DNA of 64,000 bases from Vicinamibacterales bacterium (GTDB lineage: Bacteria; Acidobacteriota; Vicinamibacteria; Vicinamibacterales; UBA8438): the NCBI GenBank assembly GCA_965204675.1, contig OZ242003.1, forward strand, positions 5,901,295 through 5,965,294. The letters run 5' to 3'. Positions 4,167 to 36,198 of this stretch are shown here, piece by piece; the stretch's first letter is position 1, and every line of letters begins with the position of its first letter. The notes beneath the pieces are model-generated. The model saw only the letters and a program-made list of their open reading frames with translations, ran no database searches and was not told the origin of the DNA. A program made the translations under genes and the position numbers.

Positions 4167-4603
4167 CCATCAAGACCCGCCATCTCGTCGTCTTCGTCAC
4201 CGCGGTGTTCGTCGCCGGCTTCGCGGCCGGAACGCTGTGGCAGGCCGACACCGCCGTCCACGCCCAGGGCGACAAGGTCTTCGAGCTGAGGACGTACACC
4301 GCCCCGGAGGGCAAGCTGCCGAACCTGGAGGCCCGGTTCCGCGACCACACGACGCGGATCTTCGAGAAGCACGGCATGAGCAACGTGGGCTACTGGGTGC
4401 CGCAGGACGCCCCCGCCTCGGACAACACGCTCATCTACATCATCTCGCACGACAGCCGCGAGCAGGCGGCGGAGAACTGGGACAGCTTCCGCGCCGACCC
4501 CGAGTGGCAGGAGGTGTCCCGCGCGTCGCAGGTCGACGGCCGCATCGTGAGCGGCGTCGAGGCGGTGTTCATGGACGCGACCGACTACTCGCCGCTGAAG
4601 TAG
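4163..4603 (+). CDS. NIPSNAP family protein, exported
   Basis: VFELRTY, RFRDHT, NTLIYI and WDSFRADPEW motifs; signal peptide; ATGA overlap with the NUDIX gene. Confidence 0.85.
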   Translation: MTIKTRHLVVFVTAVFVAGFAAGTLWQADTAVHAQGDKVFELRTYTAPEGKLPNLEARFRDHTTRIFEKHGMSNVGYWVPQDAPASDNTLIYIISHDSREQAAENWDSFRADPEWQEVSRASQVDGRIVSGVEAVFMDATDYSPLK

Positions 4604-4690
4604 CCCGCCGGCGTCGCCCCTGCGGCTCGTGGCCGCGCAACCGACCCGCCGGGAGCCCGCGCCCCTTCACCGGCGCGGGCTCCCGGCCGG
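4601..4690 (+). repeat. Structured intergenic element, copy 1 (diverged)
   Basis: Starts at the TAG stop. Leader GCGTCGCC..CGGCTC..CCGC.CAACCGACCC. Perfect 15-bp inverted repeat 4649-4663/4672-4686. Homologous to 13797-13887 and 36108-36198. Confidence 0.7.
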
Positions 4691-4709
4691 GATCACCCCG
4701 GGGAGAACC

Positions 4710-4985
4710 GTGAGCGAGGCGGACGGATACGTCGTCATCACCATCGTGCAGGGCCAGTTCGTCGAGGCCCAGATCAAGGCGTTCCTCGAGGCCCACGGCA
4801 TTCCCTGCCAGCTTCGCGGCGAGGCCCTGCGGGTGACCCACGCCATCTCCGTCGACGGCATCGGCGCGGCCGAGGTGCTGGTGCCGGCGGACCGGGCCGA
4901 GGAGGCGCGCGACCTCCTGGCGCGGGCCGACCGCGGCGAGCTCGCCATAGACGATCCACCGGCGGAACCGCCCGCCGAGTCCTGA
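4710..4985 (+). CDS. DUF2007 (putative signal-transducing) protein
   Basis: EAQIKAFLEAHGIPC and EVLVPADRAEEARDLL pattern; GTG start after GGAG. Confidence 0.7.
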   Translation: MSEADGYVVITIVQGQFVEAQIKAFLEAHGIPCQLRGEALRVTHAISVDGIGAAEVLVPADRAEEARDLLARADRGELAIDDPPAEPPAES

Positions 4986-4994
4986 CCGCGACCG

Positions 4995-5696
4995 ATGAAC
5001 GAATCCGTCCAGCTCATCCCCCTGACCCGGCTCGCCCTCGCGTTCCTGCCCGTCCTCGCCGTCCTCGTCATCATCCACCGCTGGTCGCTGGGTACCCGCA
5101 CCGCGGTGGTCGCGGTGCTGCGCATGGTCACCCAGCTTCTGCTGGTGGGCTACGTGCTGACGTTCATCTTCGGGTCGGAGCGGGCGATGGTGACCCTCGC
5201 GGTGGTCGGCGTGATGCTCGCCGTGGCCGGCTGGATCGCGCTGCGTCCGCTGGGAGACGAACGGGCGGGCCGTTATCCGACGGTGCTCGCGGCCATCGGC
5301 CTCGGCGCCCTGACGGTGCTGGCCCTGGTGACCCAGGGCGTGCTCGGCGCGAGCCCCTGGCACGACGCCAGCGTGGTCGTCCCCCTCGCCGGCATGATCA
5401 TCGCCAACTCGATGAACACCGTCAGCCTCGCGGCCGAACGGTTTCAGGCCGAGCGCCGGCGCGGCGCCGCCTACCCCGAGGCGCGGCACGCGGCCATGAG
5501 CACGGCCCTCATTCCGATGACCAACTCGCTGCTCGCGGTGGGCCTGGTGTCGCTGCCGGGGATGATGACCGGCCAGATCCTGTCCGGCGTCGCCCCCCTC
5601 GTGGCGGTGCGCTACCAGGTCCTCGTGATGTGCATGATCTTCGGGTCGGCGGGCCTGGCCACGAGCTGCTACCTCGTGCTGCAGCGACCCCGCTGA
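4995..5696 (+). CDS. UPF0014/FetB-like ABC transporter permease
   Basis: RMVTQLLLVGYVL, PLAGMIIANSM, GLVSLPGMMTGQILSG and AVRYQ motifs. Confidence 0.82.
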   Translation: MNESVQLIPLTRLALAFLPVLAVLVIIHRWSLGTRTAVVAVLRMVTQLLLVGYVLTFIFGSERAMVTLAVVGVMLAVAGWIALRPLGDERAGRYPTVLAAIGLGALTVLALVTQGVLGASPWHDASVVVPLAGMIIANSMNTVSLAAERFQAERRRGAAYPEARHAAMSTALIPMTNSLLAVGLVSLPGMMTGQILSGVAPLVAVRYQVLVMCMIFGSAGLATSCYLVLQRPR

Positions 5697-5732
5697 CGCC
5701 GCCGCTGGGTGGGCGCTGCCCGGCAACGCAAC

Positions 5733-5827
5733 TCGACGGCGCGGTCGGCCGCCGGCGGAGCCGCCGGGTCCGTCGCCAGCGTCTCGAAGAAGCCGGCCGA
5801 GACGAAGTGGCAGTGGGGTCGTCGAGC
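5733..5827 (-). pseudogene. Relic copy of the 5' end of the amidohydrolase gene
   Basis: Aligns to 9726-9821. Encodes [24 protein letters not shown] versus [24 protein letters not shown] in the intact gene. Confidence 0.8.
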
Positions 5828-6105
5828 CGCCCGGCGGGGCCCTGCCCAGGTGACGAGCGTCGCCGCAATGTCCGGCGAGTTCCGGCGATGCCGATGCGGG
5901 GCGCCTCGGAGTCGACGCGCATCGACGCGCATCGGCACGCCCCCGAACCCGCAACCCCGTCCAGCCCACGCCGCCCTGTCCTTGTTTACCGAGAGGAACA
6001 GTGCCACAATACACGGTAACCGAGAGGATCGGGACCATCGAGGCAACCATCGGGTGACCGGACCGTCGTACCTTGCACGGGACGGCTGACTGACGGAGGA
6101 GGGTC

Positions 6106-8787
6106 ATGCCTTTCGAGCGATGGCTGTACGCATGGCGGGTCCGCTCGCGGATGCTCCTCGACCGTGATCGGGTCGACCGGGAGCTGGACGACGAGCTGCG
6201 ACACCACGTCGCGCTCGACACCGAGGCCCGGCGCGCGCAGGGCGTCCCCCCGATGGAAGCGCGCCGCCAGGCGCTGGCGACCCTCGGCGGGCTGGAGTCG
6301 GCCCGCAACCACGTTCGCGAGGCGCGTTTCGGGGCGGCGCTCGAGCACGTGCTCCAGGACGTGCGCTACGCCCTGCGGGTCCTGCGGCGGAACCCGGGCT
6401 TCACCGCCACCACCGTCCTCACCCTGAACCTGGCCATCAGCGCCACCACCGCGACCTTCTCGGTGGTGGACGCGGTGCTCCTCCAGCCGCCGTCCTTTCC
6501 CGAGCCGGACCGTCTCGTCACGCTGTGGGAGACCGACCCGGAAAACGGCAACCGGCCGACCGGGGTCGCCTCCGCGAACTTCCTCGACTGGCGCGAGCAG
6601 GCGACGAGCTTCGAGGGCGTAGCGGCCCTCGACCCGTGGTCGGTCGACCTCACCGGCGCCGACACGCCCGAGGTGCTCTACGGGTGGCAGGTCACCGAGG
6701 GCTTCTTCGAGACGCTCGGGGCCGGCGCCGCCCGAGGCCGGACGTTCCTGCCCGACGAGCACCGTCCGGGCAGCGGCGTCGTCGTCCTGACCGACGGGCT
6801 GTGGCAACGCCGCTTCGGCGGCGACCCCGGCATCCTCGGCCGTTCGCTGGTGCTGGACGGCGAGCCGCACACGGTGGTGGGGGTGCTCGCCCCGAGCTTC
6901 GAGCTCCGCCTCGAGGGCGGCCGCGGCGACCGCGACTTCTTCCTGCCCAAGGCCATCGCCGAGTACGAGACGTTCATACGCGCCGGCGGCTGGTGGCCGG
7001 TGGTGGGACGGATGCGCCCCGACGTCACCCTCGCGGAGGCGCAGGCCGAGCTGGACGCCGTCGCCGCCCGGCTCGCCGCCGACCATCCACGCACCAACGC
7101 GGGGGTCGGGGCGCGGGTCATCCCGCTGCAGACCCGCCAGGTCGAAGGGGTGCGGCCGGTGCTGCTGCTGCTGTGGGGCGCGGTGGTCTTCGTCCTCCTC
7201 ATCGCCTGCGTGAACGTCGCCAACCTCATGCTGGCCCGCTACGCCCGGCGCCAGCAGGAGTTCGCGGTCCGCGCGGCGGTGGGCGGCGGGCCCGCGCGCC
7301 TGCTGCGCCAGCTCCTGACCGAGAGCGTGGTGCTCGCGGCCCTCGGGGGGCTGGGCGGCCTGGCGGCCACGGCCTACGCGCTCGATCTGCTGGTGGCGAT
7401 CATCCCCGCCGACGTCCCGCGCCTCGCGCGGATCGCGGTGAACGAACGGGTCCTGGGGTTCACCGCCGGCCTCGTCGTCCTGACCGCCCTGGGGTTCGGG
7501 TGCGCGCCCGCCGTCCGGATACTCCGGCAGGACGTCAACAGCTCCCTCGGCCGGGGTGGGCGCCGCGCCGGCGACACCGTGGGCCAGCAGCGGCTGCGCC
7601 GCCTACTGGTGGCGGCCGAGGTCGCCCTCGCCCTGGTGCTGCTGGCCGGCGCGGGCCTGCTGCTGCAGAGCTTCGTGCGGCTGGTGAACGTGGACCTGGG
7701 GTTCGCCCCCGGGAACGCCGCGACCCTGCAGGCGTTCCACTATGCCGACGACGGCACCGGCGTCGAGGCCACCCCCAACTTCTTCCGTGACACCCTCGAA
7801 GGCATCCGCGCCCTCCCCGGCGTCACCGCGGCCGGCGCCACCTCGGCGTTCCCGCTCGGCCTCGCCGACATGACCATCCGGAGCCCCCTGACCCTGCACG
7901 ACCGGCCGCCGCCCCCGCCCGGCGAGGAGCCGACGACGACCGTCTCCATGGCCACGCCGGGCTACCTGGACGCGATGCGCATCCCCCTGCGGGCCGGACG
8001 CTGGTTCGACGAGCGCGACGACGCCGGGGGGCCCGCCGTCGCCGTCGTCAACGAGACGCTGGCGCGGCAGCACTGGCCGGACGCGGATCCGATTACGCGC
8101 CGGGTGGCCGTGCGGCTCTCGAGGGGACAGGCGTTCACGGGGGACTTCGAGGTGGAGATCGTCGGGGTCGTCGGCGCGATGCGTCCGCGGGGCTTCGACA
8201 GCCCCCCGAGCCCCGAGCTGTTCCTCCCCCACGCGCAGGCGCCGAACGGCGCGATGACCTACGTCGTTCGCACGGCGGGGAATCCCGCGGCGAGCATCCC
8301 CGCCATCCAGGACGCCGTCTGGACCGTCGCGCCGGACCTCGCCTTCTACAGCGTCTCGACCGTCGACGCGCTCCTGGCGAGGACGCTCGCGACGCGGCGG
8401 TTCACGACGACGCTGCTCGCGCTCTTCGGCGTGGCCGCCCTGACGCTGGCCGGCCTCGGCATCTACGGGGTGATCGCGGTCGCCACGGCCCAGCGCACCC
8501 GCGAGATCGGCCTGCGCATGGCGATGGGAGCGCAGCCGCGGAACATCACGTGGATGGTCGTCCGCGGCGCCGTCGGTCTCGCCGCCTCCGGGGTGGTGAT
8601 CGGGCTGCTCGCGTCGCTGCTGTTCTCGCAGACGCTCACGAGCCTGCTCTTCGACGTCACGCCGTTCGACGCCGCGACGCTGGCCGGGGTGTCGCTGCTG
8701 CTGCTCGCGCTGGCCGCGGCCGCCGCCTGGTCCCCGGCCCGGCGCGCCAGCCGGGTGGATCCGCTCGTCGCGCTTCGCACGGAGTAA
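6106..8787 (+). CDS. ADOP-type duplicated MacB/FtsX ABC permease (orphan)
   Basis: ELDDELRHH N-terminal domain, QDVRYALRVLRRNPGF, two MacB-PCD/FtsX repeats and ARRASRVDPLVALRTE C-terminus. Confidence 0.9.
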   Translation: MPFERWLYAWRVRSRMLLDRDRVDRELDDELRHHVALDTEARRAQGVPPMEARRQALATLGGLESARNHVREARFGAALEHVLQDVRYALRVLRRNPGFTATTVLTLNLAISATTATFSVVDAVLLQPPSFPEPDRLVTLWETDPENGNRPTGVASANFLDWREQATSFEGVAALDPWSVDLTGADTPEVLYGWQVTEGFFETLGAGAARGRTFLPDEHRPGSGVVVLTDGLWQRRFGGDPGILGRSLVLDGEPHTVVGVLAPSFELRLEGGRGDRDFFLPKAIAEYETFIRAGGWWPVVGRMRPDVTLAEAQAELDAVAARLAADHPRTNAGVGARVIPLQTRQVEGVRPVLLLLWGAVVFVLLIACVNVANLMLARYARRQQEFAVRAAVGGGPARLLRQLLTESVVLAALGGLGGLAATAYALDLLVAIIPADVPRLARIAVNERVLGFTAGLVVLTALGFGCAPAVRILRQDVNSSLGRGGRRAGDTVGQQRLRRLLVAAEVALALVLLAGAGLLLQSFVRLVNVDLGFAPGNAATLQAFHYADDGTGVEATPNFFRDTLEGIRALPGVTAAGATSAFPLGLADMTIRSPLTLHDRPPPPPGEEPTTTVSMATPGYLDAMRIPLRAGRWFDERDDAGGPAVAVVNETLARQHWPDADPITRRVAVRLSRGQAFTGDFEVEIVGVVGAMRPRGFDSPPSPELFLPHAQAPNGAMTYVVRTAGNPAASIPAIQDAVWTVAPDLAFYSVSTVDALLARTLATRRFTTTLLALFGVAALTLAGLGIYGVIAVATAQRTREIGLRMAMGAQPRNITWMVVRGAVGLAASGVVIGLLASLLFSQTLTSLLFDVTPFDAATLAGVSLLLLALAAAAAWSPARRASRVDPLVALRTE

Positions 8788-8893
8788 CGGTCACCGCCGT
8801 GCCGAACACCGACGACCCGTTCCCCACGCCGGACGGATGCACGGGATCTACGACCGGTTGGTCGAGCGCGACGGCCGGGTCGCGGCCCCCTGA

Positions 8894-9823
8894 TCAGGAC
8901 GAATCGACGCGCTCCTCCGCGGTCGCGGCGCCGAAGACGCGCTCGAAGTTCCCGGCGAAGATCGCGGCCTGCCCCGGGGCGTCGAGGCCGAGGGCGTCCA
9001 TCACCCCGCGTTGCGCCTCCCAGACCGGCCGCTGCCATCCCCGCGGAAAGAACGACGAGTCCGAGCCGAACAGGATCCGCTCGGGGCCGAGGACGGCGAG
9101 GGCCTGCCGGAACACGCCGTCGAGGGTGAGGGGTGGCGCCTGGTACTTCACCCAGCCGTTCGAGCTCGACGTGTCGACGTGGACGTTCGGGCAGAGGTCG
9201 GCCGCCATCAGCGTCTCGCGGAAGAGACCGGCCCCGAAGTGCGGAATGATGACCGGCACCGACGGGAACGCCGCCGCGGCGGGCACGAGGTCGAGCGGGT
9301 TGCCCCGCCGCACGTCGAACCGGCACGGCAGGCCGAGCTTGCGCCGGACCCCGACCGACAGGACCCCGCAGTGCACGAACACCGCCCGGCCGTGCCCGGC
9401 CGCCGCCTCGAAGACCGCGAACACCCGCGCGTCGTCGAGCGCGAAGTGGTGCATGGCGGGAAAGAGGCAGGCGCAGCCCAGCCCGTGCTCGCCGTACGCC
9501 CGGGCGAGGCGACCGGCCGCGTCGGGCGCCGTCGGGTTGAACATGAAGCTGCCCGCGAGCCGCGCCGGATGCCGGGCCACCGCCGCCGCGACCGACGCCT
9601 CGTCGCCGGGGACGCTCGCCATCAGCGCCGCGCGCGCCACCCCGTGCCGGTCGAGCTCGTCCACCCAGCGGTCCGCGAGCGCCGCGGGGCTCCCCGGCGC
9701 ATCCCAGCCCAGCCGCGCGGGCAGATCGACGGCGGGGTCGGCGGCCGGCGGCGCGGCCGGGTCCCGGGCCAGCGTCTCGAAGAAGCCGGCCGAGAAGAAG
9801 TGGCAGTGGGCGTCGTTGAGCAT
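8894..9823 (-). CDS. Amidohydrolase family protein (amidohydro_2)
   Basis: DAHCH (HxH), [22 protein letters not shown] and ILFGSD motifs. Confidence 0.85.
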
Positions 9824-9881
9824 GTCCGGCTCGATGTTAGCCTGCCGGCCGGCGCGAGTCGAATCGACCGGTCATGCCGTC

Positions 9882-10066
9882 GATCTCGACGCGCAACCGG
9901 CGGACCCCGCCGGTGTCAGGGCTTCGACCCGAGCTCGCGGGCGCCGACACTCCTCAGGGGCAGGACGGTGGACGATCTCGACGCGCAAACCGGCGCACCC
10001 CCCGGCCGGCGTCAGGACGTCGGCCCGAGCCCGCAGGCGCCGACACTCCTCAGGGGCAGGGCGGTG
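9882..10066. repeat. Diverged tandem duplication, ~92-nt period
   Basis: 9882-9970 and 9974-10066 share GATCTCGACGCGCA...GGCGCCGACACTCCTCAGGGGCAGG.CGGTG. Confidence 0.85.
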
Positions 10067-10155
10067 ATGGCGTCGGCGAGCGGATACTCCCGCTCGCCGG
10101 GATAGACGACCCACAGGTGCTCGAGCCCCAGGTCGTCGATGACGACGTGCGCCAA
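10012..10155 (-). pseudogene. C-terminal remnant of an AAA/DUF4143-type ATP-binding protein
   Basis: HVVIDDLGLEHLWVVYPGEREYPLADAITALPL resembles the conserved C-terminus of that family (recognised from memory). The rest of the gene is absent. Confidence 0.6.
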
Positions 10156-10347
10156 TGGGCGGCTACAATACGTGCATGCCGCCCAGGACGAACACCTTCG
10201 CCGGAACGGCTGGGAACGCTCGCTCCACCGCCGGCTCCATCCCCGCCCCGTCAGGCGCAACAGCACTCCCCCGGTGGGACACGAGGCGCGGCGCGCCGGC
10301 CGCGGCAACGACGGTATGTGGACGCTGACCGAAGGAGGGCTGCGGGC

Positions 10348-11652
10348 GTGATCGACCGCCTTGTCATCGAGAACTTCAAGAGCCTTCGGCGGGTCGATCT
10401 GGCGCTCGGCCGGATGAACCTCCTCGTCGGCGCGAACGGCAGCGGCAAGTCGAACCTGCTCGACGCGTTGCGGGTGTTGCAGGGCATCGGCAGCGGCTTC
10501 ACGATCAGCGAGATTCTGGACGGCAAGCCGAGAAGCGCGACCAGCGTGGCGTGGGAGGGCATTCGCGGGGGAAGCGGCCTGGCCTGCTTCGCCGACGGCC
10601 GCGGAAACGCCGGAACCGGTGACTTGACTTTCAGGGTGCATGGACGGCTGGCCAGCCGCCCCGGTCGGGGTCGGGTCGGGCCGGACGACCTGCCCTGGGA
10701 GCTTCTGATCGCGTTCTCGCCGAAATCGGGCTGGGTGACGCGCGAGCGCCTCGAAGTGGGGGGGACGGTCATCTACGATACGGATCTCGTTGAGGACTTT
10801 TCGCAGAAAAACCCGGTATGGTGCACCATAGCGGCAGCGCCGGACTTTGCCGTCCAGTTGCAGCGGACACGTCCGGCACTGGGACAACTGGCCGGCCCGT
10901 GGCGCCACGACGGTAGTAGCACGGGAAGCGCAGACGACGATCCGAGTCTTGACGTGCTGCCGGCAGACAACGGCTTTGTTTGGGGCCATCTGGCGGGCGA
11001 AGTGGTCGGATTGCTGGCCGACATCCAGCAGGTGGACCCGGAATCGCGTTTGCTGCGGGAGTACTCTCAAGTGGCTCAAGTCCGCCAGATGGGCAACCGA
11101 GGGGAGAATTTTGCCGCCCTGGTGCACGCGATATGCGAGGACGAAAAGGCCAAGGACGCCTATCTGGCGTGGCTTCGGCAACTTCGTCCTGAGGAAATCG
11201 ACGACGTCGGGGTGCTGCGCGGCGCGGTCAACGAACCGCTGTTCATGCTGCAAGAGAAGGGCAGAACGTTTCCCGCGATGGTCCTGAGCGACGGCACCCT
11301 GCGCTTCGCCGCACTCACGGCCGCGTTCTTCCAGCCCGACATGCCCGATCTCATGATGATGGAGGAGATAGAGAACGGCGTTCCCGCGAGCCGGGCGCGG
11401 CTGCTGCTCGAGTTGCTGCGCAGCCAGTCCGTGGCTGCGGAGACGCAAGTCGTTGCGACGACGCACTCGGCGACGGTCCTCGACTGGCTCGGGGAGGAAG
11501 ACTACAAGACGACGTTCGTCTGCAAGCGGGACGAGGAGACCGGCGAATCGCGGATCTGCGCCTTGGCGGACGTGCCGCATTTCGGGAACGTCGTGAAGAA
11601 GCGCCCCGTGTCCGAGCTGTTCTCGGAGGGCTGGCTGGAAGCGGTGTTGTGA
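10348..11652 (+). CDS. ABC-type (AAA_21/AAA_15-like) ATPase
   Basis: RBS GAAGGAGG and GTG start; IENFKS, Walker A GANGSGKS, LSDGTLRF signature, MMEEIENG Walker B and ATTHS H-loop. Confidence 0.88.
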   Translation: MIDRLVIENFKSLRRVDLALGRMNLLVGANGSGKSNLLDALRVLQGIGSGFTISEILDGKPRSATSVAWEGIRGGSGLACFADGRGNAGTGDLTFRVHGRLASRPGRGRVGPDDLPWELLIAFSPKSGWVTRERLEVGGTVIYDTDLVEDFSQKNPVWCTIAAAPDFAVQLQRTRPALGQLAGPWRHDGSSTGSADDDPSLDVLPADNGFVWGHLAGEVVGLLADIQQVDPESRLLREYSQVAQVRQMGNRGENFAALVHAICEDEKAKDAYLAWLRQLRPEEIDDVGVLRGAVNEPLFMLQEKGRTFPAMVLSDGTLRFAALTAAFFQPDMPDLMMMEEIENGVPASRARLLLELLRSQSVAAETQVVATTHSATVLDWLGEEDYKTTFVCKRDEETGESRICALADVPHFGNVVKKRPVSELFSEGWLEAVL

Positions 11653-12218: not shown

Positions 12219-12362
12219 CGCGCGAGCGCCACCAGCCGCCGTCCGATGCCCCGGCGCGGTTGCCGTACGGGTTCCCCTGCCGGCACGGCCCGCGATATGA
12301 TCACGACCCGTTGCGGCCATCCGCGACGTCCGCAATCCACCACACAGCCAACGGAGCCCGTC

Positions 12363-13799
12363 ATGCACTTCGCACGAACGCTCGGAACGACCGTCCTGAT
12401 CATCACCGCCGCGGCCCTTCCGGCCGCGGCGCAGGTGGAGCCCCTGGCCGACCCCATTCCCGACCCGATCCTGAAGGGCGACCTGGTCGTGGCAGCGACC
12501 CCGTTCGTCCGCGCCCCGCGGACCGCGGACTCGGCCGTGGACGCGATGACGAACGAGGCCTACGCGCGCATCCAGTACCTGACGCCGATCGGGGACGGCT
12601 CGGGGCGTCTCGTCCTGAACGACCTGCGCGGGCTGCTGTACATCACCGACGAGAACGGGGCGGAGCCGGTGATCTACATGGATGTCCGCACCCTCGACAT
12701 CGGCTTCGACGACTCGATGTTCCCCAACGAGACCGGCCTCGTGGGGGTGGCGTTCCACCCGCAGTTCGCCGACGCCGGCACGCCGGGGTTCGGCAAGTTC
12801 TACACTGCGTACAGCGCCCGGTCGGACAGCGGCACCGCCGACTACCTGGACGACGACGCCGGGAGCCACGAGAGCGTGATCCGGGAGTGGACGGTCGACG
12901 ATCCGGCCGCGAACGCGTTCAGCGGCACGTCGCGCGAGGTCTTCCGCATCGGCCAGTTCGCCCCCAACCACAACGTCGGCACCATCGCGTTCAATCCGAA
13001 CGCGGCCCCGGGGTCGCCGGAGTACGGGTTGCTCTACGCCAGCCTCGGGGACGCCGGGGCCGCCCACGATCCCCGCGACTTCGGCCAGTCCCTCGCCGCG
13101 CCCCACGGCGCGATCATCCGCATCGACCCCCTCGGCGGCGACGGCAGCCGGGGCTACGGCGTTCCCGCCGACAATCCCTTCGTGGGCGAGGCGGGCGTCG
13201 CCCCCGAGATCTGGGCCTACGGCCTGCGGCACGCGCAGCAGTTCTCGTGGGACACGGACGGCCGGATGTTCATGGGCGACATCGGCCAGAACGTGGTGGA
13301 AGAGGTCAACCTGGGCGTGCCGGGCGCCAACTACGGCTGGCGCCTTCGGGAGGGCACGTTCGCCACCGGCTACACGCTCACCCCCCGGCGACCGGGACCC
13401 GTGTACCCGCCGCCGGCCGAGGACGACCATCCCTTCGTGCACCCGGTGGCCCAGTACGACCACGACGAGGGCTACGCCGTGAGCGGCGGGTTCGTCTACC
13501 GCGGCGAGGCCATCCCCGAGCTGCGGGGCCAGTACGTCTTCACCGACTTCCCGCGGGGCCGGGTGTTCTACATCGACGCCGACGGGCTCGTGCCCGGCCA
13601 GCTCGCCGAGATCCGGGAGCTGCGGCTGGTCATCGACGGCGAGGAGCGCGACCTCGTCGAGGCCGCCGGGATACGCAACACGTACGCCCCGGGCGACCGG
13701 GCCGACGCCCGCCTGGGCATCGACTCCGCGGGAGAACTCTATCTGCTGACGAAGAGCGACGGCTGGGTCCGGAAGCTGGAGCCGGTGGGAGCACGCTAG
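12363..13799 (+). CDS. Exported PQQ-dependent sugar dehydrogenase (GSDH/sorbosone-type beta-propeller)
   Basis: Signal peptide; GLVGVAFHPQF, NHNVGTIAF, IPADNPF-like motif, EIWAYGLRH, DIGQNVVEEVN and GANYGW. Confidence 0.85.
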   Translation: MHFARTLGTTVLIITAAALPAAAQVEPLADPIPDPILKGDLVVAATPFVRAPRTADSAVDAMTNEAYARIQYLTPIGDGSGRLVLNDLRGLLYITDENGAEPVIYMDVRTLDIGFDDSMFPNETGLVGVAFHPQFADAGTPGFGKFYTAYSARSDSGTADYLDDDAGSHESVIREWTVDDPAANAFSGTSREVFRIGQFAPNHNVGTIAFNPNAAPGSPEYGLLYASLGDAGAAHDPRDFGQSLAAPHGAIIRIDPLGGDGSRGYGVPADNPFVGEAGVAPEIWAYGLRHAQQFSWDTDGRMFMGDIGQNVVEEVNLGVPGANYGWRLREGTFATGYTLTPRRPGPVYPPPAEDDHPFVHPVAQYDHDEGYAVSGGFVYRGEAIPELRGQYVFTDFPRGRVFYIDADGLVPGQLAEIRELRLVIDGEERDLVEAAGIRNTYAPGDRADARLGIDSAGELYLLTKSDGWVRKLEPVGAR

Positions 13800-13887
13800 C
13801 CCGGAGAGCGTCGCCTACGGCTCCGCTCACCGCCCAACCAACCCTGCCAGGAGTCTGCACCGTTCTACGGCGCCGACTCCTGGACCG
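13797..13887 (+). repeat. Structured intergenic element, copy 2
   Basis: Starts at the TAG stop. Hairpin CCAGGAGTC...CCGT-TCT-ACGG...GACTCCTGG. Highly similar to 36108-36198. Confidence 0.85.
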
Positions 13888-16626: not shown

Positions 16627-16636
16627 CCCGCCGCCG

Positions 16637-29886: not shown

Positions 29887-29887
29887 G

Positions 29888-30994
29888 TCAGTACACTCCC
29901 ACCGTGGTCGCCGACGCGAGCCGGCTGAACGGGCGCACCCCGCTCACCCCGTCCCATGGATACTGCTCGCACGGCGGCTCGCGCTCGCCCTCGTCGCGCT
30001 CCTGGAAGCGCGGCACGAAGAACTCCTTCGTCAGCGTCGTCAGCATCACCCGGCCGGTCTCGCCGTACCCGACCACGCGGTCCGCGTCGTCGGGGTCCAC
30101 GACCTGCAGGACGGCCCGCGGCTGCGGCGCGTAGTAGGTGATCTTGTAGCCGTTCTCGGGGCCGCTCGGGGGGCTGCCGGCGAGGCCCATGAGGGTGTTG
30201 CCGTAGGTCGGTGTCATGTAGATGCCGTCGAGCAGCTCCTCGTGGGCGAAGCGGTTCCACTGCGGCGTGAACTCGGTGCCGCCGGCGAAGATGCCGGTGA
30301 TGCCGGTGTCCTTCAGGCACGACCCGTCGGCCTCGAGGCGGTTGGCGAGGGCCTCGAGCAGCTTGGGGGTCGAGAACAGGCACCTGATGTCGTGCCCGGC
30401 CGACAGCACCGTGATCGCCTGGTCGATGACGTGGTCCTGGTAGGCCTTCAGGTGCTCCATCCAGCCCTTCTTGATGAGCTTGATGACCCACCGTGGATCG
30501 AGGTCCACGCAGAAGCAGATGCCGCCCCGGTGCTGGGCGAGGTGCTCGACCGCGAGCCGCAGCCGCCGGGGGCCGCTCGGCCCCAGCATGAGCCAGTTGC
30601 TGCCCTTCGGGAAGTGCTCGTCGGGCAGGGTCTCCGAGAACAGCTCGTAGTCGATGCGGAAGTCCTCCTGGGCGACCCGGCTCTTGGGGATGCCGGTGGT
30701 GCCGCCGGTCTCGAACACGAACGTCGGCCGGTCGGCGTAGGCCCTGGGCACCCAGCGGCGGACGGGGCCGCCCCGCAGCTTCTCGTCCTCGAAGTGGGGG
30801 AACTTCGCGAGGTCGTCGAACCCGTGGACCTCGCCCCGCGGGTCCCACCCCGCGTCGCGCGCCCAGTCGAGCCAGAACGGACACCCGGTGTCGGGGTTGA
30901 AGTGCCACTCGACGATCTCGCGCACCCAGGCGTCGAGCGCCGTCCTCGCCTGGGCCGCCCTGGTCTCAGCCGTGCTGCTCTCCGTAGTCATCAA
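29888..30994 (-). CDS. EhpF/GriC-like adenylate-forming enzyme (truncated ANL fold)
   Basis: WHFNPDTGCPFW, FETGGTTGIPK (P-loop), DLDPRWV, GGTE, TYGNT, GETGRVMLT and ERD. These motifs match my recollection of Pantoea EhpF (WHFSKETGSPFW, ESGGTTGAPK, DIDPRWV). Confidence 0.75.
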   Translation of the reverse strand: MMTTESSTAETRAAQARTALDAWVREIVEWHFNPDTGCPFWLDWARDAGWDPRGEVHGFDDLAKFPHFEDEKLRGGPVRRWVPRAYADRPTFVFETGGTTGIPKSRVAQEDFRIDYELFSETLPDEHFPKGSNWLMLGPSGPRRLRLAVEHLAQHRGGICFCVDLDPRWVIKLIKKGWMEHLKAYQDHVIDQAITVLSAGHDIRCLFSTPKLLEALANRLEADGSCLKDTGITGIFAGGTEFTPQWNRFAHEELLDGIYMTPTYGNTLMGLAGSPPSGPENGYKITYYAPQPRAVLQVVDPDDADRVVGYGETGRVMLTTLTKEFFVPRFQERDEGEREPPCEQYPWDGVSGVRPFSRLASATTVGVY

Positions 30995-31069
30995 CCCATG
31001 ATCCTACACTAGTAGTCGACGGCGCGGCCCGGGGTGGTGGTCCGGCCGACAATCGGGGAGCGTGAACGA

Positions 31070-31546
31070 ATGGGACGTCTGGAACGGATCTGGGTGAAAC
31101 GGTTCCACCGCGGCCCGATGGACCCGGTTGACGCCGCCGACCTCCGGCGAGGCGCCGGCATCGTGGGCAACGCCAACCAGGGGGGCTGGCGACAGGTCAC
31201 GATCATCGCGGCCGCCGACTGGGACCGCGTCGTCGAGGCGCTCGCGACGGCGGTCGACCCTGGAGAGAGGCGCGCCAACCTGCTCGTCAGCGGGGTCGCC
31301 CTCGCGCACACCCGCGACCGCGTCCTGCAGGTGGGCGGCTGCCGGCTGCGGGTGCGCGGCGAGACCCGCCCCTGCGAGCGGATGGACGAAGCCGAGCCGG
31401 GCCTGCGCGCCGCCCTCGACCCCGGGTGGCGGGGAGGCGTGTTCGCCGAGGTGCTCGACGACGGCCGCATCGTCGTCGGCGACCCCGTCGCGTGGACGGA
31501 ACCGGCGCCGTCAGGCGAGGGCCGCGGTCAGACCGACTCGAGCTGA
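31070..31546 (+). CDS. MOSC domain protein
   Basis: RQVT, RRANLLVSG, ETRPCERM and GGVFAEVLDDGRIVVGD. Confidence 0.85.
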   Translation: MGRLERIWVKRFHRGPMDPVDAADLRRGAGIVGNANQGGWRQVTIIAAADWDRVVEALATAVDPGERRANLLVSGVALAHTRDRVLQVGGCRLRVRGETRPCERMDEAEPGLRAALDPGWRGGVFAEVLDDGRIVVGDPVAWTEPAPSGEGRGQTDSS

Positions 31547-31863
31547 TCCGTCTTGGCCGCGAAGACGAAGTCGCTCTCCGTCAGGCCGTCGATCTTGTGC
31601 GTCCAGATGGTGACGGTGGCCCGACCCCACGCCAGCAGGATGTCGGGATGGTGGCCCTGCTCCTCGGCCATCTCGCCGACCCGCACCGTGAAGTCGAGGG
31701 CCCGGCGGAAGTCCTCGAAGCGGTAGGTCTTCTCGAGGTGGTGCCCGTCGACCACCTCCCAGCCCCCGCCGAGCTGCCGCTGGTACCCGGCCAGCTCCTC
31801 GCCGGCGAGGGGCGGGACCCCGCCCCGGCAGGGCACGCACTGCTTCGACGCGAGCTCGCTCAT
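31528..31863 (-). CDS. phhB: Pterin-4-alpha-carbinolamine dehydratase
   Basis: LASKQCVPC, KTYRFEDF, GHHPD and WTHKIDGLTESDFVFAAK. Confidence 0.92.
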   Translation of the reverse strand: MSELASKQCVPCRGGVPPLAGEELAGYQRQLGGGWEVVDGHHLEKTYRFEDFRRALDFTVRVGEMAEEQGHHPDILLAWGRATVTIWTHKIDGLTESDFVFAAKTDQLESV

Positions 31864-31950
31864 GCGTCTTCCTCCGATGCCGGTCATGCCGGCACAGGCA
31901 CTATCATAGTGGGTTGGACTGCCGATCGCGACTCCTCAGGAGGCTCACCG

Positions 31951-32385
31951 ATGCCCGACCAGAAGCAGAACTTCGACAACCACGTCCGTTTCGTGCCCAT
32001 CTTCCACTACGTCGCCGCCCCCATCCTCCTCGTCAACCTCGTCTGGGCGGTCTGGCAGCTCCGGGCTCCGTCGTTCCCGGCCCTGCTCGACGTGCTGGTG
32101 GCCGTCGCCCTGCTCATCCTCTTCCTGTGCGCGCGGGTGTTCGCCCTCAAGGCGCAGGACCGCGTGATCCGAGTCGAGATGCGCCTGCGCATGCGCGAGC
32201 TGCTGCCCGAGGACCTGCAGGGCCGGATAAACGAGTTCACGCCGACCCAGATGGTGGGCCTGCGGTTCGCCGGCGACGCCGAGCTGCCCGACCTCGCCCG
32301 CAAGGTGCTCGACGAGAACATCACCGCGGCGACCCCCATCAAGAAGCTCGTCACCGACTGGCAGGGGGACTACTACCGCGTCTAG
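31951..32385 (+). CDS. Conserved membrane protein (DUF6526-like)
   Basis: QNFDNHVRF, QDRVIRVEMRLR, LRFAGDAEL and W..DYYRV; RBS AGGAGG. Confidence 0.7.
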   Translation: MPDQKQNFDNHVRFVPIFHYVAAPILLVNLVWAVWQLRAPSFPALLDVLVAVALLILFLCARVFALKAQDRVIRVEMRLRMRELLPEDLQGRINEFTPTQMVGLRFAGDAELPDLARKVLDENITAATPIKKLVTDWQGDYYRV

Positions 32386-32813
32386 CGCCCTGGTGCGCGC
32401 GTCGCACCGAGCCCGGAGAGGCCCTCGAGGGCCGTGAGACGCCCGTGCGACTGGGCGTGACGAGCGAGCGATGGAACAAGCGACGCGGTGGCATCGTCCA
32501 TTCGGGCGAAGCGCCGGGACGGAGGGGCCTGCGAGGCGGCGAGCGGGCGGTCCCCACGACCGACGCAGATGCTGTCTGCACCGGCCCGGGCACGGAGGCG
32601 CCTGCGAGGCGGCGACGGGGGCGATGCAATAAACGGCGCCGCCGAGTCGTCTAGTACCATTGGGGAGGTTGCGCCTCGTCCCGGAATCCGGCGGCGGGCG
32701 CGTTCCCCCTGGAATACGAGCCCAGTTCAAGCCTGCCACGCTCATGCGTCGGCGCGGCGCGGTTCGCATTCTCACTACGGCTCCGGGACGGAATCACGGA
32801 AAGGGAAGCACTC

Positions 32814-35800
32814 ATGAAGGGCGGGATCGCCTGGTTCGCCCGCAATCCGGTCGCCGCGAACCTCATGATGATCTTCATCATCATGAGCGGCGCGATTGCG
32901 ACCACCGCGGTCAAGGAAGAGATCTTCCCGGAGATCGAGCTCGACCGGGTCAGCATCAACATCCCCTATCTCGGCGCGGCGCCCGAGGAGGTCGAGTCGG
33001 GGGTGATCCTCCGCGTCGAGGAGGCCATCCAGGGCATCGACGGCATCAAGGAGATTCAGTCGACCGCGTCCGAGGGCAGCGCCTCGGTCATGGTCGAGCT
33101 CGAGCTCGGCGCCGACGCCCGGCGCGTCGTCGACGAGATCAAGAACCAGGTCGACGCCATCACCACGTTCCCCATCGAGACCGAAGAGCCCATCATCCGC
33201 GAGCTCATCGCCCGCAACCAGGTCACCGACATCGCCATCTCCGGCGCCACCGACGTCTTCACCCTCAAGGCGATCGCCGAGCAGGTGCGCGACGAGCTGA
33301 CCGTGCTGCCCGAGATCACCCAGGTCGACATCGTCAGCGCCCCCCCCTACGAGATCTCCATCGAGGTCTCCGAGACGGCGCTGCGGCGGCACGGCATGAC
33401 CTTCGACCAGGTCGCCGACGCGGTGCGCCGCTCGTCGCTCGACCTGCCCGGCGGCTCGGTCCGCACCGACGGCGGCGAGATCCTGCTGCGCACCATCGGC
33501 CAGGCCTACCGCGGGAACGAGTACGAGGCCCTGGTGCTGCTGACCCGCGCCGACGGCACCCGCCTGCGGCTCGGCGACGTGGCGACCATAATCGACGGCT
33601 TCGCCGAAACCGACCAGCAGGCCCGCTTCGACAGCGACACGACGGTGATGGTCTCGGTGTTCCGCACCGGCGACCAGAGCGCCCTCGACATCGCGGCGGC
33701 GGTGGAGCGCTACGTCGAGGACATGCAGGCGCAGGTCCCCCGGGGCATCTCGCTCACCATCTGGCAGGACCAGGCCGAGATACTCGCCGACCGGCTGACC
33801 CTGATGGTGCGCAACGGCGCGACCGGGTTCGTGCTCGTCTTCATCGTGCTCGCCCTCTTCCTCCAGTTCCGCCTGGCGTTCTGGGTCAGCCTGGGCATCC
33901 CCATCTCGTTCCTCGGCGCCATCGCCCTGATGCCGGGGCTCGACGTCTCGGCCAACGTCATCTCGCTGTTCGCGTTCATCCTCGTGCTGGGCATCGTGGT
34001 CGACGACGCGATCATCGTCGGCGAGAACATCTTCCGGCACCAGGAGAACCACGGGGAGGCCCTGCGGGGCTCCATCGAGGGGGCGCACGAGATCGCCAAG
34101 CCGGTGACCTTCGCGGTCCTGACGACGGTGGCGGCGTTCATGCCGCTGATGTTCGTGCCCGGCATGATGGGGAAGATCTTCCGGGTCATCCCCCTCGTCG
34201 TCATCCCCTGCCTGCTCTTCTCGCTGATCGAGTCGCTCGGCATCCTGCCCGCCCACCTCGCCAACATGCGCGAGCGCCGCACGTCCGGTCCGTGGCACCG
34301 GTTCCAGCAGTTCTTCGCGAACGGCCTGAAGGACTTCGTCCGGACCGTCTATCAGCCGCTGCTCGAGACCGCGCTGCGCTGGCGCTACGTGACCGCCGCG
34401 GTGGGGCTCTCGACCCTCATCGTGACCGGGGGCATGGTGCTCGGCGGGTGGACCAACTTCCACTTCTTCCCCTCGATCGAGGCCGACTTCATGGCCGCGT
34501 CGCTCACCATGCCGCAGGGCACGCCGGTCGAGTCGACGTCGCGGGCGGTCGAGAAGCTCGAGGCGGGGGCGGCGCGGCTGCGCGCCCGGTTGCAGCGGGA
34601 AACCGGCATGGACTACTTCCGCCACGTGTCGGCGTCGGTCGGCGACCAGCCGATGATGTCGCGCGGCGGCGGCCCGATGGGGCCGATGGAGGTGGCCAGC
34701 GCCGCGAACCTCGGCGAGGTGACGGTCGAGCTCGCCCCGGCCGAGACCCGGGCGTTCACGAGCGAGCAGCTCGGCCTGATGTGGCGCGAGGCGACCGACC
34801 CGATCCCCGAGGCGGTCGAGGTCAACTTCGACATGTCGATGATGGCGCCGGGCGACGACGTCGACGTGCAGCTCGCGGGGCCCGACCTCGAGCGGTTGCG
34901 CGCCGCCGCCGACGAGGTCAAGCGCCGGCTCGCGGCCTACGCCGGCGTCTACGAGATCTCCGACTCGTTCCGGGCCGGCAAGGTGGAGATGCAGCTCGGC
35001 ATCAAGCCCGCGGCGGAGACCCTCGGCCTGACCCTGCAGGACCTCGGCCGGCAGGTGCGGCAGGCCTTCTACGGCGAGGAGGCCCAGCGCATCCAGCGCG
35101 GGCGCGACGACATCCGGGTCATGGTGCGCTACCCGCGGGACGATCGCCGCTCGCTCGGCGACCTCGAGAACATGCGCATCCGAACCCCGAACGGCGGCGA
35201 GGTGCCGTTCGGCCAGGTCGCGCAGGTGGAGCCGGGGCGCGGCTTCGCGTCGATCAAGCGGGTCGACCGCAACCGGGCCGTCAACGTGACCGCGTCCGTC
35301 GACCCGGCCGTGACGTCGGCCGGGGCGGTCATCGGCGATCTGCAGGCCCGCATCCTGCCCGAGGTCCTCGCCGACTACCCCGGCGTGTTCTACACCTTCG
35401 AGGGGGCCCAGGCCGAGCAGGTCGAGGCGGTCGGCGGCCTGCAGTGGGGGTTCGCGCTGGCGCTCCTCATGATCTTCGCCCTCCTCGCGGTGCCGTTGCG
35501 CTCGTACGTGCAGCCGCTCATCATCATGGCGGCCATCCCCTTCGGCCTCGTCGGGGCCATCTGGGGCCACATGGTGATGCGGCTCGACGTCACCATGATG
35601 TCGATGTTCGGCCTCGTCGCGCTGACCGGGGTCGTCGTGAACGACAGCCTCGTGATGGTCGACTTCATCAACCGCGCCCGGAAGGTCCACGCCGACGTGG
35701 GCGCCAAGGTGCGCCAGGCCGGGGGGCAGCCGCGGGACCGCCACGCGTTCGAATCGGCGGGCCTGCAGCTCGCGATCCGCGAGGCGGGGGGCAACCGGTT

Positions 35801-36110
35801 CCGGCCCATCCTCCTCACGTCGCTGACGACGTTCTTCGGCCTCGCGCCGCTGATGCTCGAGCGCAGCATGCAGGCGGCGTTCCTGGTGCCGATGGCGGTG
35901 TCGCTGGCCTTCGGGGTGCTGTTCGCCACCTTCATCACGCTGATCCTGGTGCCGACGGCGTACCTCATCCTCGACGACGTCCAGCGGACGATGCGGCGGC
36001 TGTTCGGGCGGGAAGAGCCGGCGTTCGCCCCCGAGGCGCCGCCCCTGACCGGCGAAGCGGTGGTGGCGGGCGGCGCGCAGGCGGCGAGGACCGCCGAGGC
36101 GGCGTCGTAG
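32814..36110 (+). CDS. RND efflux permease (AcrB family)
   Basis: IAWFARNPVAANLMM, GIVVDDAIIVGE, GVVVNDS and RFRPILLTSLTT. Confidence 0.93.
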   Translation: MKGGIAWFARNPVAANLMMIFIIMSGAIATTAVKEEIFPEIELDRVSINIPYLGAAPEEVESGVILRVEEAIQGIDGIKEIQSTASEGSASVMVELELGADARRVVDEIKNQVDAITTFPIETEEPIIRELIARNQVTDIAISGATDVFTLKAIAEQVRDELTVLPEITQVDIVSAPPYEISIEVSETALRRHGMTFDQVADAVRRSSLDLPGGSVRTDGGEILLRTIGQAYRGNEYEALVLLTRADGTRLRLGDVATIIDGFAETDQQARFDSDTTVMVSVFRTGDQSALDIAAAVERYVEDMQAQVPRGISLTIWQDQAEILADRLTLMVRNGATGFVLVFIVLALFLQFRLAFWVSLGIPISFLGAIALMPGLDVSANVISLFAFILVLGIVVDDAIIVGENIFRHQENHGEALRGSIEGAHEIAKPVTFAVLTTVAAFMPLMFVPGMMGKIFRVIPLVVIPCLLFSLIESLGILPAHLANMRERRTSGPWHRFQQFFANGLKDFVRTVYQPLLETALRWRYVTAAVGLSTLIVTGGMVLGGWTNFHFFPSIEADFMAASLTMPQGTPVESTSRAVEKLEAGAARLRARLQRETGMDYFRHVSASVGDQPMMSRGGGPMGPMEVASAANLGEVTVELAPAETRAFTSEQLGLMWREATDPIPEAVEVNFDMSMMAPGDDVDVQLAGPDLERLRAAADEVKRRLAAYAGVYEISDSFRAGKVEMQLGIKPAAETLGLTLQDLGRQVRQAFYGEEAQRIQRGRDDIRVMVRYPRDDRRSLGDLENMRIRTPNGGEVPFGQVAQVEPGRGFASIKRVDRNRAVNVTASVDPAVTSAGAVIGDLQARILPEVLADYPGVFYTFEGAQAEQVEAVGGLQWGFALALLMIFALLAVPLRSYVQPLIIMAAIPFGLVGAIWGHMVMRLDVTMMSMFGLVALTGVVVNDSLVMVDFINRARKVHADVGAKVRQAGGQPRDRHAFESAGLQLAIREAGGNRFRPILLTSLTTFFGLAPLMLERSMQAAFLVPMAVSLAFGVLFATFITLILVPTAYLILDDVQRTMRRLFGREEPAFAPEAPPLTGEAVVAGGAQAARTAEAAS

Positions 36111-36198
36111 CCCGGAAATCGTCGCCTTCGGCTCCGATTGCCGCCCAACCGACCCTGCCAGGAGTCTGCACCGTTCTACGGCGCAGACCCCTGGACCG
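36108..36198 (+). repeat. Structured intergenic element, copy 3
   Basis: Starts at the TAG stop. Hairpin CCAGGAGTCTGC..CCGTTCTACGG..GCAGACCCCTGG. Highly similar to 13797-13887. Confidence 0.85.

Follow-up and report, generated by a model that had tools for sequence, protein, structure and literature searches.

The window analysed here, a 64,000-nucleotide stretch of the genome of a soil acidobacterium (Vicinamibacterales; 6.77 Mb, 71% GC, a single contig, 97.6% complete), contains three copies of a short element on the + strand, each starting at the TAG stop codon of the open reading frame upstream. As the initial annotation had described, the three copies have a common leader followed by a 3' hairpin. 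The ends it gave (4690, 13887 and 36198) needed correction, since the conserved unit stops four bases earlier, at 4686, 13883 and 36194. The parts of the three copies are as follows.

4600-4603, + strand: left 4-mer of copy 1, GTAG, with the TAG at 4601-4603 forming the stop of a NIPSNAP-domain gene (4163-4603)
4604-4648, + strand: left module of copy 1, a diverged hairpin 1 and the linker CAACCGACCC
4649-4686, + strand: 3' part of copy 1, with an internal CCGG, hairpin 2 GAGCCCGCGCC...GGCGCGGGCTC at 4653-4682 and the right 4-mer CCGG at 4683-4686
13796-13799, + strand: left 4-mer of copy 2, CTAG, with the TAG (from 13797) forming the stop of a glucose/sorbosone-dehydrogenase-like (GSDH-like) gene (12246-13799)
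13800-13846, + strand: left module of copy 2 (subfamily A), hairpin 1 CGGAGAGCG-TC-GCC-TAC-GGC-TC-CGCTCACCG at 13802-13832 and the linker CCCAACCAACCCTG
13847-13883, + strand: 3' part of copy 2, with the internal CCAG at 13847-13850, hairpin 2 at 13851-13879 and the right 4-mer CTGG at 13880-13883
36107-36110, + strand: left 4-mer of copy 3, GTAG, with the TAG (from 36108) forming the stop of an AcrB-family transporter gene (32814-36110)
36111-36157, + strand: left module of copy 3, hairpin 1 CGGAAATCG-TC-GCC-TTC-GGC-TC-CGATTGCCG at 36113-36143 and the linker
36158-36194, + strand: 3' part of copy 3, with an internal CCAG, hairpin 2 GAGTCTGCACCGT TCT ACGGCGCAGACCC at 36162-36190 and the right 4-mer CTGG at 36191-36194

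Mean column identity among these three copies is 77%. Copy 1 is old and is common to the sister species G014, and hairpin 2 of copy 2 consists of the fused IS1182-type inverted repeats GAGTCTGCACCGT / ACGGCGCCGACTC.

What had been taken for a three-copy element was found at hundreds of places. An nhmmer scan of the whole 6.77-Mb genome gave 471 matches, which resolved into 426 non-overlapping copies on both strands (about 430); 334 of these are close to full length. Divergence is 10-25% for most copies, with decay of the 4-mers at their ends; four units at scattered loci are 100% identical with all three CTAGs intact, and such identical dispersed copies are the product of recent mobility. The family includes 51 head-to-tail doublets and 8 triplets, with 67 adjacent pairs on the same strand versus 2 on opposite strands. 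Neighbouring units in these arrays have one 4-mer in common, and adjoining units are more similar to each other than are randomly drawn pairs; the arrays may grow mainly through local duplication. As expected of a MITE, the 84-nt element is small, non-coding, multi-copy and insertion-polymorphic between relatives. The suggestion that the family was undescribed was borne out, as the repeat was absent from the literature searched in full text and Rfam 15 gave no match to the whole window at gathering thresholds. When four copies were searched against Rfam with E values up to 1, the sole matches were an unrelated tRNA and a microRNA, the latter by chance.

The 84-nt unit consists, in order, of a CTAG-like 4-mer, a 46-nt left module (hairpin 1 followed by the linker CAACCAACCC, also given as CCCAACCAACCC), a second CTAG-like 4-mer, the 29-nt hairpin 2 and a third CTAG-like 4-mer, so that the 4-mer occurs at both ends and once internally, and the sequence belonging to each unit is 80 nt plus one 4-bp CTAG-type site. 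The site of the family is CTAG and not GTAG, since 84% of copies have C just before TAG. The flanking 4-mers decay via transitions to CTGG, CCAG or CCGG, with a heavy skew on the right (99 CTGG, 6 CCAG) and none on the left (35 CTGG, 25 CCAG). About 8 solo left modules occur in the genome, along with about a dozen convincing solo 29-nt hairpins built of the two inverted repeats and flanked by CTAG-like 4-mers, by our own reading of 64 candidates. Only these solo hairpins have inverted repeats at both ends, as a MITE does; the 84-nt unit lacks such a terminal pair, and its 5' end (CCCGG...) resembles neither repeat of the IS considered below.

The compensatory pairing noted in the window copies held across the family, and the covariation is confirmed as real in both hairpins. 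Mutual information in a structure-blind HMM alignment (303 copies) was highest for stem pairs of hairpin 1, one position of which carries three Watson-Crick pair types. Among 60 copies, 85.5% of cells were paired compared to at most 42.5% when the partners were slid, sliding likewise lowered the covariation score from 0.171 to 0.059 or less, and 94 double-sided changes were observed against 41.7 +/- 4.7 in shuffled data, a count reached in 0 of 500 shuffles. On both strands the folds are more stable than shuffled sequence (z -3.7 to -5.4). Direct reading of the sequence found no U-tract after hairpin 1 or hairpin 2.

Comparison with empty sites in relatives, which the initial annotation had put forward, yielded four filled/empty pairs. 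Copy 3 of the window is filled and the sister species G007 is empty (GTC-CTAG-GCGGATCTCG). Conversely, the window is empty at 29888-29891 (CACG-TCAG-TACAC) while the nearest relative, G014, is filled with CTAG on both sides (CACG-CTAG-...-CTAG-TACAC). The other two sites are filled in G000 and empty in G014, one at 5846916-5847004 and one at about 4915929-4916016, the latter reading GCCGTT-CTAG-80 nt-CTAG-GGCATCC when filled and GCCGTT-CTAG-GGAGCCC when empty. This genome gained a unit after its split from G014. The pairs show an insertion per event of 80 nt plus one apparently duplicated 4-mer, which is CTAG in the cleanest pair, and they show that the whole unit inserts at CTAG, or occasionally at NTAG, with the 4-mer then present at both ends. 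The sequence would fit either a true 4-bp target duplication or a 3' CTAG carried by the element.

This target explains the position behind genes. CTAG occurs at 1360 sites in the genome, with an observed/expected ratio of 0.08 by base composition (about 12-fold under-represented) and of 0.22 under a second-order Markov model, and 291 of the 1360 sites, at least a fifth, lie at called TAG stops. Since CTAG is so rare and so often forms part of a TAG stop, insertions accumulate right on stop codons, whichever way the unit is oriented. A gene's stop codon is supplied by at least 83 units, 27 with their left end and 56 with their right end, and selection then retains the flanking TAG as the stop. 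Orientation is biased as well: in co-directional spacers 107 units are antisense and 29 sense, and units abutting a stop are oriented 56 to 27, a transcription-related bias larger than the replichore bias of 59:41. Divergent, promoter-bearing spacers hold 11 units and convergent spacers 51.

In hairpin 2 the two arms correspond to the inverted repeats, left and right and here fused, of an IS of 1.58-1.6 kb found in G088 and in the genus; this IS has the structure CTAG-GAGTCTGCGCCG(C/T)AG...CT(G/A)CGGCGCAGACTC-CTAG. Its transposase scores 366.4 bits against NF033551 (IS1182 family; cut-off 270) and contains the DUF772, DDE_Tnp_1 and DDE_Tnp_1_6 domains, and the IS is a bona fide member of the IS1182 family. 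Copies of the IS have a CTAG at each side, and where they lie in tandem they have one CTAG in common, the same pattern as in the units; judging from these flanking CTAGs, unit and parent IS appear to use the same target site with the same duplication. Of 22 genus genomes, 14 encode an intact IS1182 transposase, G014 among them. In this genome only a fragment was found, and an 85-nt IS end lies as a relic after a left module, exactly at the position of hairpin 2. We therefore consider it probable that all three elements belong to a non-autonomous "tailed" MITE, atypical in form and akin to IS of the IS1182 family. An IS1182-family DDE transposase acting in trans would be the mobiliser, and hairpin pairing would be kept because only copies that can fold continue to be copied. 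The copies here may now be largely stranded, because just a transposase fragment remains in the genome.

The structure of the unit is unusual for such a MITE. Because both inverted repeats lie at one end and the left end has none, hairpin 2 alone would be mobile in a DDE reaction of the canonical two-end kind, and because the internal CTAG is intact in young copies, blocked inner cleavage cannot explain why the tail travels along. Further observations weigh against the explanation by an IS1182-derived MITE: the fit of the sequence to an element-borne 3' CTAG as well as to a true target duplication; the difference in skew between right and left 4-mers; the 107:29 orientation bias, which a palindromic target does not predict; the recent gain of a unit despite the lack of an intact IS1182 transposase here; and seven other genus genomes that have hundreds of units though no IS1182 transposase homologue was found in them, among them G013, where many copies are 97-99% identical to the young subfamily.

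A rival explanation is that an enzyme other than the IS1182 transposase moves the 84-nt unit, namely a recombinase or transposase aimed at CTAG that would recognise, on a single strand, two distinct folded hairpins. The likeness of hairpin 2 to the IS would then go back to a nested insertion long ago, when an IS1182 mini-MITE entered the CTAG of a 46-nt element to which it is unrelated, or to mimicry of a host site by both IS and unit. The left end without an inverted repeat, recent insertions and identical copies despite the lack of an intact IS1182 transposase in the genome, the seven IS1182-free genomes, the strong covariation of hairpin 1, which is not IS-derived and carries three Watson-Crick pair types at one position, and the solo left modules and solo hairpin 2 copies expected of two separable parts all speak for such an enzyme. 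Nevertheless, we regard this as unlikely, since no candidate was found: the genome has no Y1 transposase, and its IS630-like and IS1634 elements have ends unrelated to the unit, even though the IS630-like IS also lies in CTAG (its ends are GTGGTGTGTCCC). Moreover, unit and IS have in common the arms of hairpin 2, flanking CTAGs and tandem junctions with a shared CTAG, and loss of the IS after a burst of MITE copying, or provision of the transposase by a plasmid missing from the assembly, would be an ordinary alternative.

It is less probable still that the unit is first of all a functional RNA or DNA signal that would be retained by the host behind genes, for instance to stabilise 3' UTRs, to act as a hairpin resembling an intrinsic terminator or to bind a protein, with mobility secondary. 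The compensatory changes in both hairpins, folds far more stable than shuffled sequence, the orientation biases in excess of that of the replichores and the scarcity in divergent relative to convergent spacers are what such a signal might produce. However, hairpin pairing might just as well be maintained in the DNA, for the sake of transposition, and the position behind genes is already explained by the CTAG target. The genes upstream (NIPSNAP, GSDH, AcrB) are unrelated, presence varies at orthologous sites of sister species, most copies are diverged with decaying ends, and there is neither a U-tract after either hairpin nor an Rfam match.

The initial annotation had viewed the family as REP/MITE-like, of which the MITE-like, mobile part stands and the link to REP elements, GTAG and RAYT does not. 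That the units are GTAG-class REP/BIME-type elements which a RAYT (TnpA-REP) tyrosine transposase has spread is highly improbable, for all that they form a short, abundant extragenic palindrome family with GTAG at the start of two of the three window copies. RAYT genes are typically flanked by REPs, and the proposal is refuted for this genome by a search for the Y1 HUH transposase (PF01797), which gave 0 matches in this 97.6%-complete single contig while the control search matched 6 of 14 reference genomes. In addition, the family 4-mer, CTAG, has the behaviour of a duplicated target site instead of a tag recognised by a RAYT, the pairs are head to tail and not inverted doublets, and the palindrome arms are the ends of a DDE-type IS. 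An IS200/IS605-derived palindromic element (PATE), which depends on a Y1 TnpA transposase and inserts 3' of a fixed tetra- or pentanucleotide with no duplication, was likewise rejected, there being no such transposase in the genome.

Similar elements are known from other bacteria. The REP/BIME/REPIN sequences of E. coli, Pseudomonas and Stenotrophomonas also comprise hundreds of short extragenic palindromes behind genes, with compensatory stem changes and a conserved tetranucleotide adjoining the palindrome, but the acidobacterial family has no RAYT gene, uses CTAG as an insertion site instead of a cleavage tag, forms tandem head-to-tail units and takes its arms from a DDE-type IS. The Correia elements of Neisseria and RUP of pneumococcus are CTAG/TA-targeting MITEs of IS630/Tc1 and IS5 type that reach high copy number, have hairpin-forming transcripts and occasionally provide stop or start signals for neighbouring genes. 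Both of their ends bear inverted repeats corresponding to those of IS630- or IS5-type partners; insertion at TA/CTAG is shared with the acidobacterial unit, while the two-ended repeats are not. MITEPye1 of Paracoccus yeei is an IS1182-derived MITE with 4-bp direct repeats; both of its termini are inverted repeats of 18 bp, and it has 1-3 copies in the chromosome (PMC11578231). Like it, the acidobacterial unit is small, non-coding and intergenic, has a stem-loop fold and 4-bp direct repeats, matches IS1182-family inverted repeats with its ends and is presumed to be mobilised in trans; unlike it, the unit has both repeats fused in a 29-nt hairpin at one end and a 46-nt structured tail without an inverted repeat at the other, targets CTAG specifically, and occurs in about 430 copies and in head-to-tail arrays. 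Reports on members of the IS1182 family describe action on palindromic or stem-loop DNA, a location just 3' of genes and duplicated terminal sequences, and IS1272 of this family targets stem-loops and replaces them with no target duplication (PMC5678879). The acidobacterial IS and its derivatives differ in using the 4-bp palindrome CTAG, which is left on both sides.

Our verdict is that the family is an undescribed, atypical IS1182-related MITE and not a REP element. A bolder reading, possible and offered only tentatively, is that the 84-nt unit, moved whole without an inverted repeat at one end, represents an undescribed kind of mobile element. Its mobiliser would be either an IS1182-type DDE transposase that reads the hairpin with both binding sites and takes the covarying, non-IS hairpin as a surrogate end, or another enzyme present in genomes without that transposase, and it would aim at CTAG with a transcription-related orientation preference. 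If this reading of whole-unit mobility is true, the aim at CTAG would in practice be an aim at TAG stop codons.

Each of the three window copies, all on the forward strand, begins at the TAG that ends the open reading frame upstream, and the three stretches match the initial annotation in having a common leader and, after it, a strong hairpin on the 3' side. No relationship links the three genes upstream.

Copies in the window and the genes upstream of them
4163-4603, NIPSNAP-domain gene, upstream of copy 1
about 4601 to 4686, forward strand, copy 1
12246-13799, glucose/sorbosone-dehydrogenase-like gene, upstream of copy 2
about 13797 to 13883, forward strand, copy 2
32814-36110, AcrB-family transporter gene, upstream of copy 3
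about 36108 to 36194, forward strand, copy 3

On either strand, the window copies fold more stably than shuffled sequence, by 3.7-5.4 standard deviations. A search of Rfam with curated (gathering) and permissive thresholds gave no match to the element, and the family was not described in the full-text literature searched on IS1182 and the CTAG target site and on repeats, transposases and MITEs of Vicinamibacter (as a word stem). The spacer that follows copy 3 (36195-36314, with orthologous loci L157-L170) lies upstream of P-II (glnB-like) and ammonium-transporter genes and varies greatly in length among species of the genus. In all of them a conserved CTGATATAGTG box stands at its end, with GATCTCGATCC-like repeats ahead of the box, and this region may be a regulatory site.

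The initial annotation was right that the elements are real and wrong that there are three of them. The host genome is a single contig of 6.77 Mb with 71% GC, in which copy 3, used as a BLAST query, found dozens of copies at 85-94% identity. Two rounds of nhmmer gave 471 hits, reducing to 426 non-overlapping copies on both strands, of which 334 are near full length; at 84 nt apiece, the roughly 430 copies make up about 0.5% of the genome. Of the arrays, 51 are doublets and 8 are triplets, while 300 copies stand alone; 67 adjacent pairs run head-to-tail and 2 are inverted. When one genome per species was scanned with a pattern, more than 112 loci matched, nearly all in MAGs labeled Vicinamibacterales or Vicinamibacteria (phylum Acidobacteriota), the matches under other labels being three MAG records named "Acidobacteria bacterium" and one bin labeled Gammaproteobacteria. 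BLAST across 81 genomes of the order confined the family to three genera of the GTDB family to which the window belongs. When part of the region from 5.6 to 6.2 Mb was compared with the nearest relative, the sister species G014, many arrays had only one flank represented in the fetched 400-kb sister stretch, and on this partial comparison copies may frequently border variable or rearranged segments.

Each unit spans 84 nt (consensus GCCCGccaAtCGTCGCCtgCGGCTCCGcttGgCGCCCaaCCaAcCCgCCaGGAGTCcGCgCCGTtCcaCGGCGCaGACtCCtgG), with conservation at background level directly outside it, and consists of a 46-nt left module with hairpin 1, an internal 4-mer and the 29-nt hairpin 2. Three CTAG-like 4-mers accompany each unit, and in tandem arrays one 4-mer is common to both neighboring units.

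CTAG-like 4-mers of the unit, with counts
Left flank: CTGG 35, CTAG 31, CCAG 25, CCGG 24, GTAG 10
Directly before hairpin 2: CCAG about 133, CCGG about 100, CTAG 13
3' end: CTGG 99, CCGG 81, CTAG 45, CCAG 6

The empty-site comparison with related genomes proved productive, yielding four orthologous filled/empty pairs (hyphens separate flanks, 4-mers and unit).

Pair 1: copy 3, GTC-GTAG-80 nt-CTGG-ACCGATCTCG; empty in the sister species G007, GTC-CTAG-GCGGATCTCG
Pair 2: G014, CACG-CTAG-unit-CTAG-TACAC; empty in the host genome (window 29888-29891), CACG-TCAG-TACAC
Pair 3: host genome 5846916-5847004, GG-CTAG-80 nt-CCAG-GAGCC; empty in G014, GG-CTAG-AGGCC
Pair 4, the cleanest: host genome, GCCGTT-CTAG-80 nt-CTAG-GGCATCC; empty in G014, GCCGTT-CTAG-GGAGCCC

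These pairs indicate a gain of 80 nt plus one extra 4-mer, which could be either a 4-bp target duplication or a CTAG carried by the element, since the sequence alone would fit both.

This choice of target accounts for the anchoring on TAG, which the initial annotation located correctly, without implying a function linked to stop codons. CTAG occurs 1360 times in the genome, which is 0.08 of what base composition predicts and 0.22 of what a second-order Markov model predicts, and at least 291 of these sites overlap the TAG stop of a crudely called gene. Under a strict test (an open frame of 60 codons or more, GC3 no lower than 0.8 and GC1 greater than GC2), 27 units supply a stop at their left end, and the right end of 56 further units gives a stop on the other strand; looser counts at the level of arrays were 28-35 left-end and about 79 right-end stops. 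A TAG that serves as a stop is retained while the preceding base is free (CTAG 10, GTAG 8, ATAG 2), and 4-mers not serving as a stop decay by transitions. Across all called genes, the base before TAG stops is G in 1045 and C in 299, although third positions are rich in both. At stop codons, too, CTAG seems to be avoided. The deficit of C could come from the general depletion of CTAG or from a cost to sites that serve as insertion targets.

The arrays are also oriented with respect to transcription. With gene context judged by a GC3-phase test on the flanks, the ratio in co-directional spacers was 107 to 29, and 51 arrays lay in convergent spacers versus 11 in divergent ones. A replication-strand bias was rejected as the cause, the replichore ratio of 59:41 being weaker than the bias related to transcription.

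In a structure-blind alignment of 303 copies, the pairs with the highest corrected mutual information were stem pairs of hairpin 1, among them 8-34 (C-G 165, G-C 75) and 10-32 (A-T 90, C-G 55, G-C 46). The same signal was apparent in 60 copies compared with slid partners or shuffles.

Covariation in 60 copies, with controls
Cells in which the partners form a standard pair: 85.5%; slid partners 42.5% or less
Covariation score: 0.171; slid partners 0.059 or less
Pairs changed on both sides: 14; shuffles 9.7 +/- 1.6
Cells changed on both sides: 94; shuffles 41.7 +/- 4.7, with 0 of 500 reaching 94

Much of this covariation tracks subfamilies (for example GGAGAGCG/CGCTCACC, GCCAATCG/CGCTTGGC and GGAAATCG/CGATTGCC), so that independent events are fewer than the cell counts imply. 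At the foot of hairpin 2 the 4-mers vary as complements of each other (CCAG opposite CTGG, CCGG opposite CCGG), whereas the unpaired left 4-mer decays symmetrically, a difference which argues that pairing is favored. Such pairing may act on the DNA, in mobility, or on an RNA, as both would fit these sequences.

The arms of hairpin 2, GAGTCyGCrCCGT and ACGGyGCrGACTC, are the inverted repeats (IRs) of an IS1182-family insertion sequence (IS) joined head to head. Insertion sequences of about 1.58 kb with these ends and CTAG flanks were present in 14 of 22 genomes of the genus, and the transposase of the nearest relative scored 366 bits against NF033551 (IS1182 family; cut-off 270). G088, from another genus of the same family, carries 12 copies of a 1605-bp IS of the form CTAG-GAGTCTGCGCCGCAGG...CTGCGGCGCAGACTC-CTAG. 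At two G088 loci, L205 (C1:2001500-2008500) and L206 (C1:3401500-3408500), full-length copies lie head-to-tail with one CTAG in common. Several G088 copies adjoin the left-module end of an 84-nt unit, above the rate predicted from the share of CTAG sites that are next to units, an excess that hints at insertion near existing units.

Traces of the same ends exist in the host genome. Outside the window, at G000:C1:1034396-1034610, a left module is followed directly by an 85-nt remnant of an IS1182 end, which takes the position of hairpin 2, and beside that remnant is an IS derivative with an internal deletion, about 110 nt in length (GAGTCTGCGCCGTGGAAC...TTTCCTACGGCGCA). Judged by eye among 64 candidates, about a dozen solo 29-nt IR-IR hairpins between CTAG-like 4-mers were convincing, and there are about eight solo left modules in this genome. 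Its IS1182 transposase is reduced to a 157-residue fragment, with no intact gene and no PF13751 domain. A search of this genome for long elements with the hairpin arms at their ends gave output dominated by GC-rich noise. The left module aligned weakly and inconsistently to an internal IS region (z 2.6-3.4) and to the right subterminal region (p 0.006-0.02 before correction for multiple tests).

Random copies are 78% identical and a copy is typically 90% identical to its nearest neighbor in sequence, so most copies are old. Units next to each other are more similar (median 88%; at least 95% in 6 of 43 pairs), which suggests local duplication as the main way in which arrays grow. Four dispersed units match one another at 100% identity, each with its three CTAGs intact, and one of them is missing from G014 at a locus with 94-98% flank identity. 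Units 97-100% identical to this young subfamily are found in several species (G013, G003, G099 and others), with flanks only about 76-96% identical at the two loci compared, a pattern that would fit continuing activity or horizontal spread.

The best account of the unit is a non-autonomous element related to IS1182 that targets CTAG and has an unusual "tailed" architecture; in the host genome it is mostly stranded. The kind of element is already known and its architecture is a variant. Published parallels are MITEPye1, an IS1182-derived MITE with 4-bp direct repeats (PMC11578231), and IS1272, an IS1182-family member that targets stem-loops (PMC5678879). The left end has no inverted repeat, and the unit therefore fails a defining feature of MITEs; the one unusual point is that both putative transposase-binding repeats are in one terminal hairpin beside a structured tail that has none.

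The missing left repeat, the lack of an intact transposase, the unrelated resident insertion sequences and the orientation bias together leave room for three other explanations. A standard two-end DDE reaction would move hairpin 2 only, and a mechanism using a surrogate end may move the whole unit. The mobilizing enzyme may be other than an IS1182 transposase, no homologue of which was found in seven unit-rich relatives in the genus, including G013 with dozens of units of the young subfamily that is 97-100% identical between species. Selection on a role as RNA would be the third. The host genome is very poor in intact insertion sequences beyond an IS1634-family IS (304782-306743; 22-nt terminal inverted repeat GGCTTACTAGTCGGAAGTTTCA) and an IS630-like IS (3386134-3387277; terminal inverted repeat GTGGTGTGTCCC, in CTAG), and both were rejected as partners because their ends are unrelated to the unit. 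The proposal that the tail is taken along because a mutated internal CTAG prevents cleavage was discarded, since the youngest, identical copies have that CTAG intact, and the REP/RAYT reading of the initial annotation was abandoned in the absence of a RAYT/IS200 Y1 transposase from the host genome.

What looked like a regulatory RNA linked to stop codons is thus explained by a rare palindromic target, CTAG, that funnels a mobile element onto TAG stops. Vicinamibacterales are very common soil bacteria, and these hairpins will mislead searches for RNA motifs and terminators in them. Element sites differ between sister species, so the family marks variable positions. The whole unit transposes despite its repeat-less tail, a variant that merits a test at the bench. 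If the IS1182 transposase moves it, the unit would be a simple substrate for the poorly understood stem-loop-directed transposition of this family; if not, another mobilizing enzyme is still to be found.
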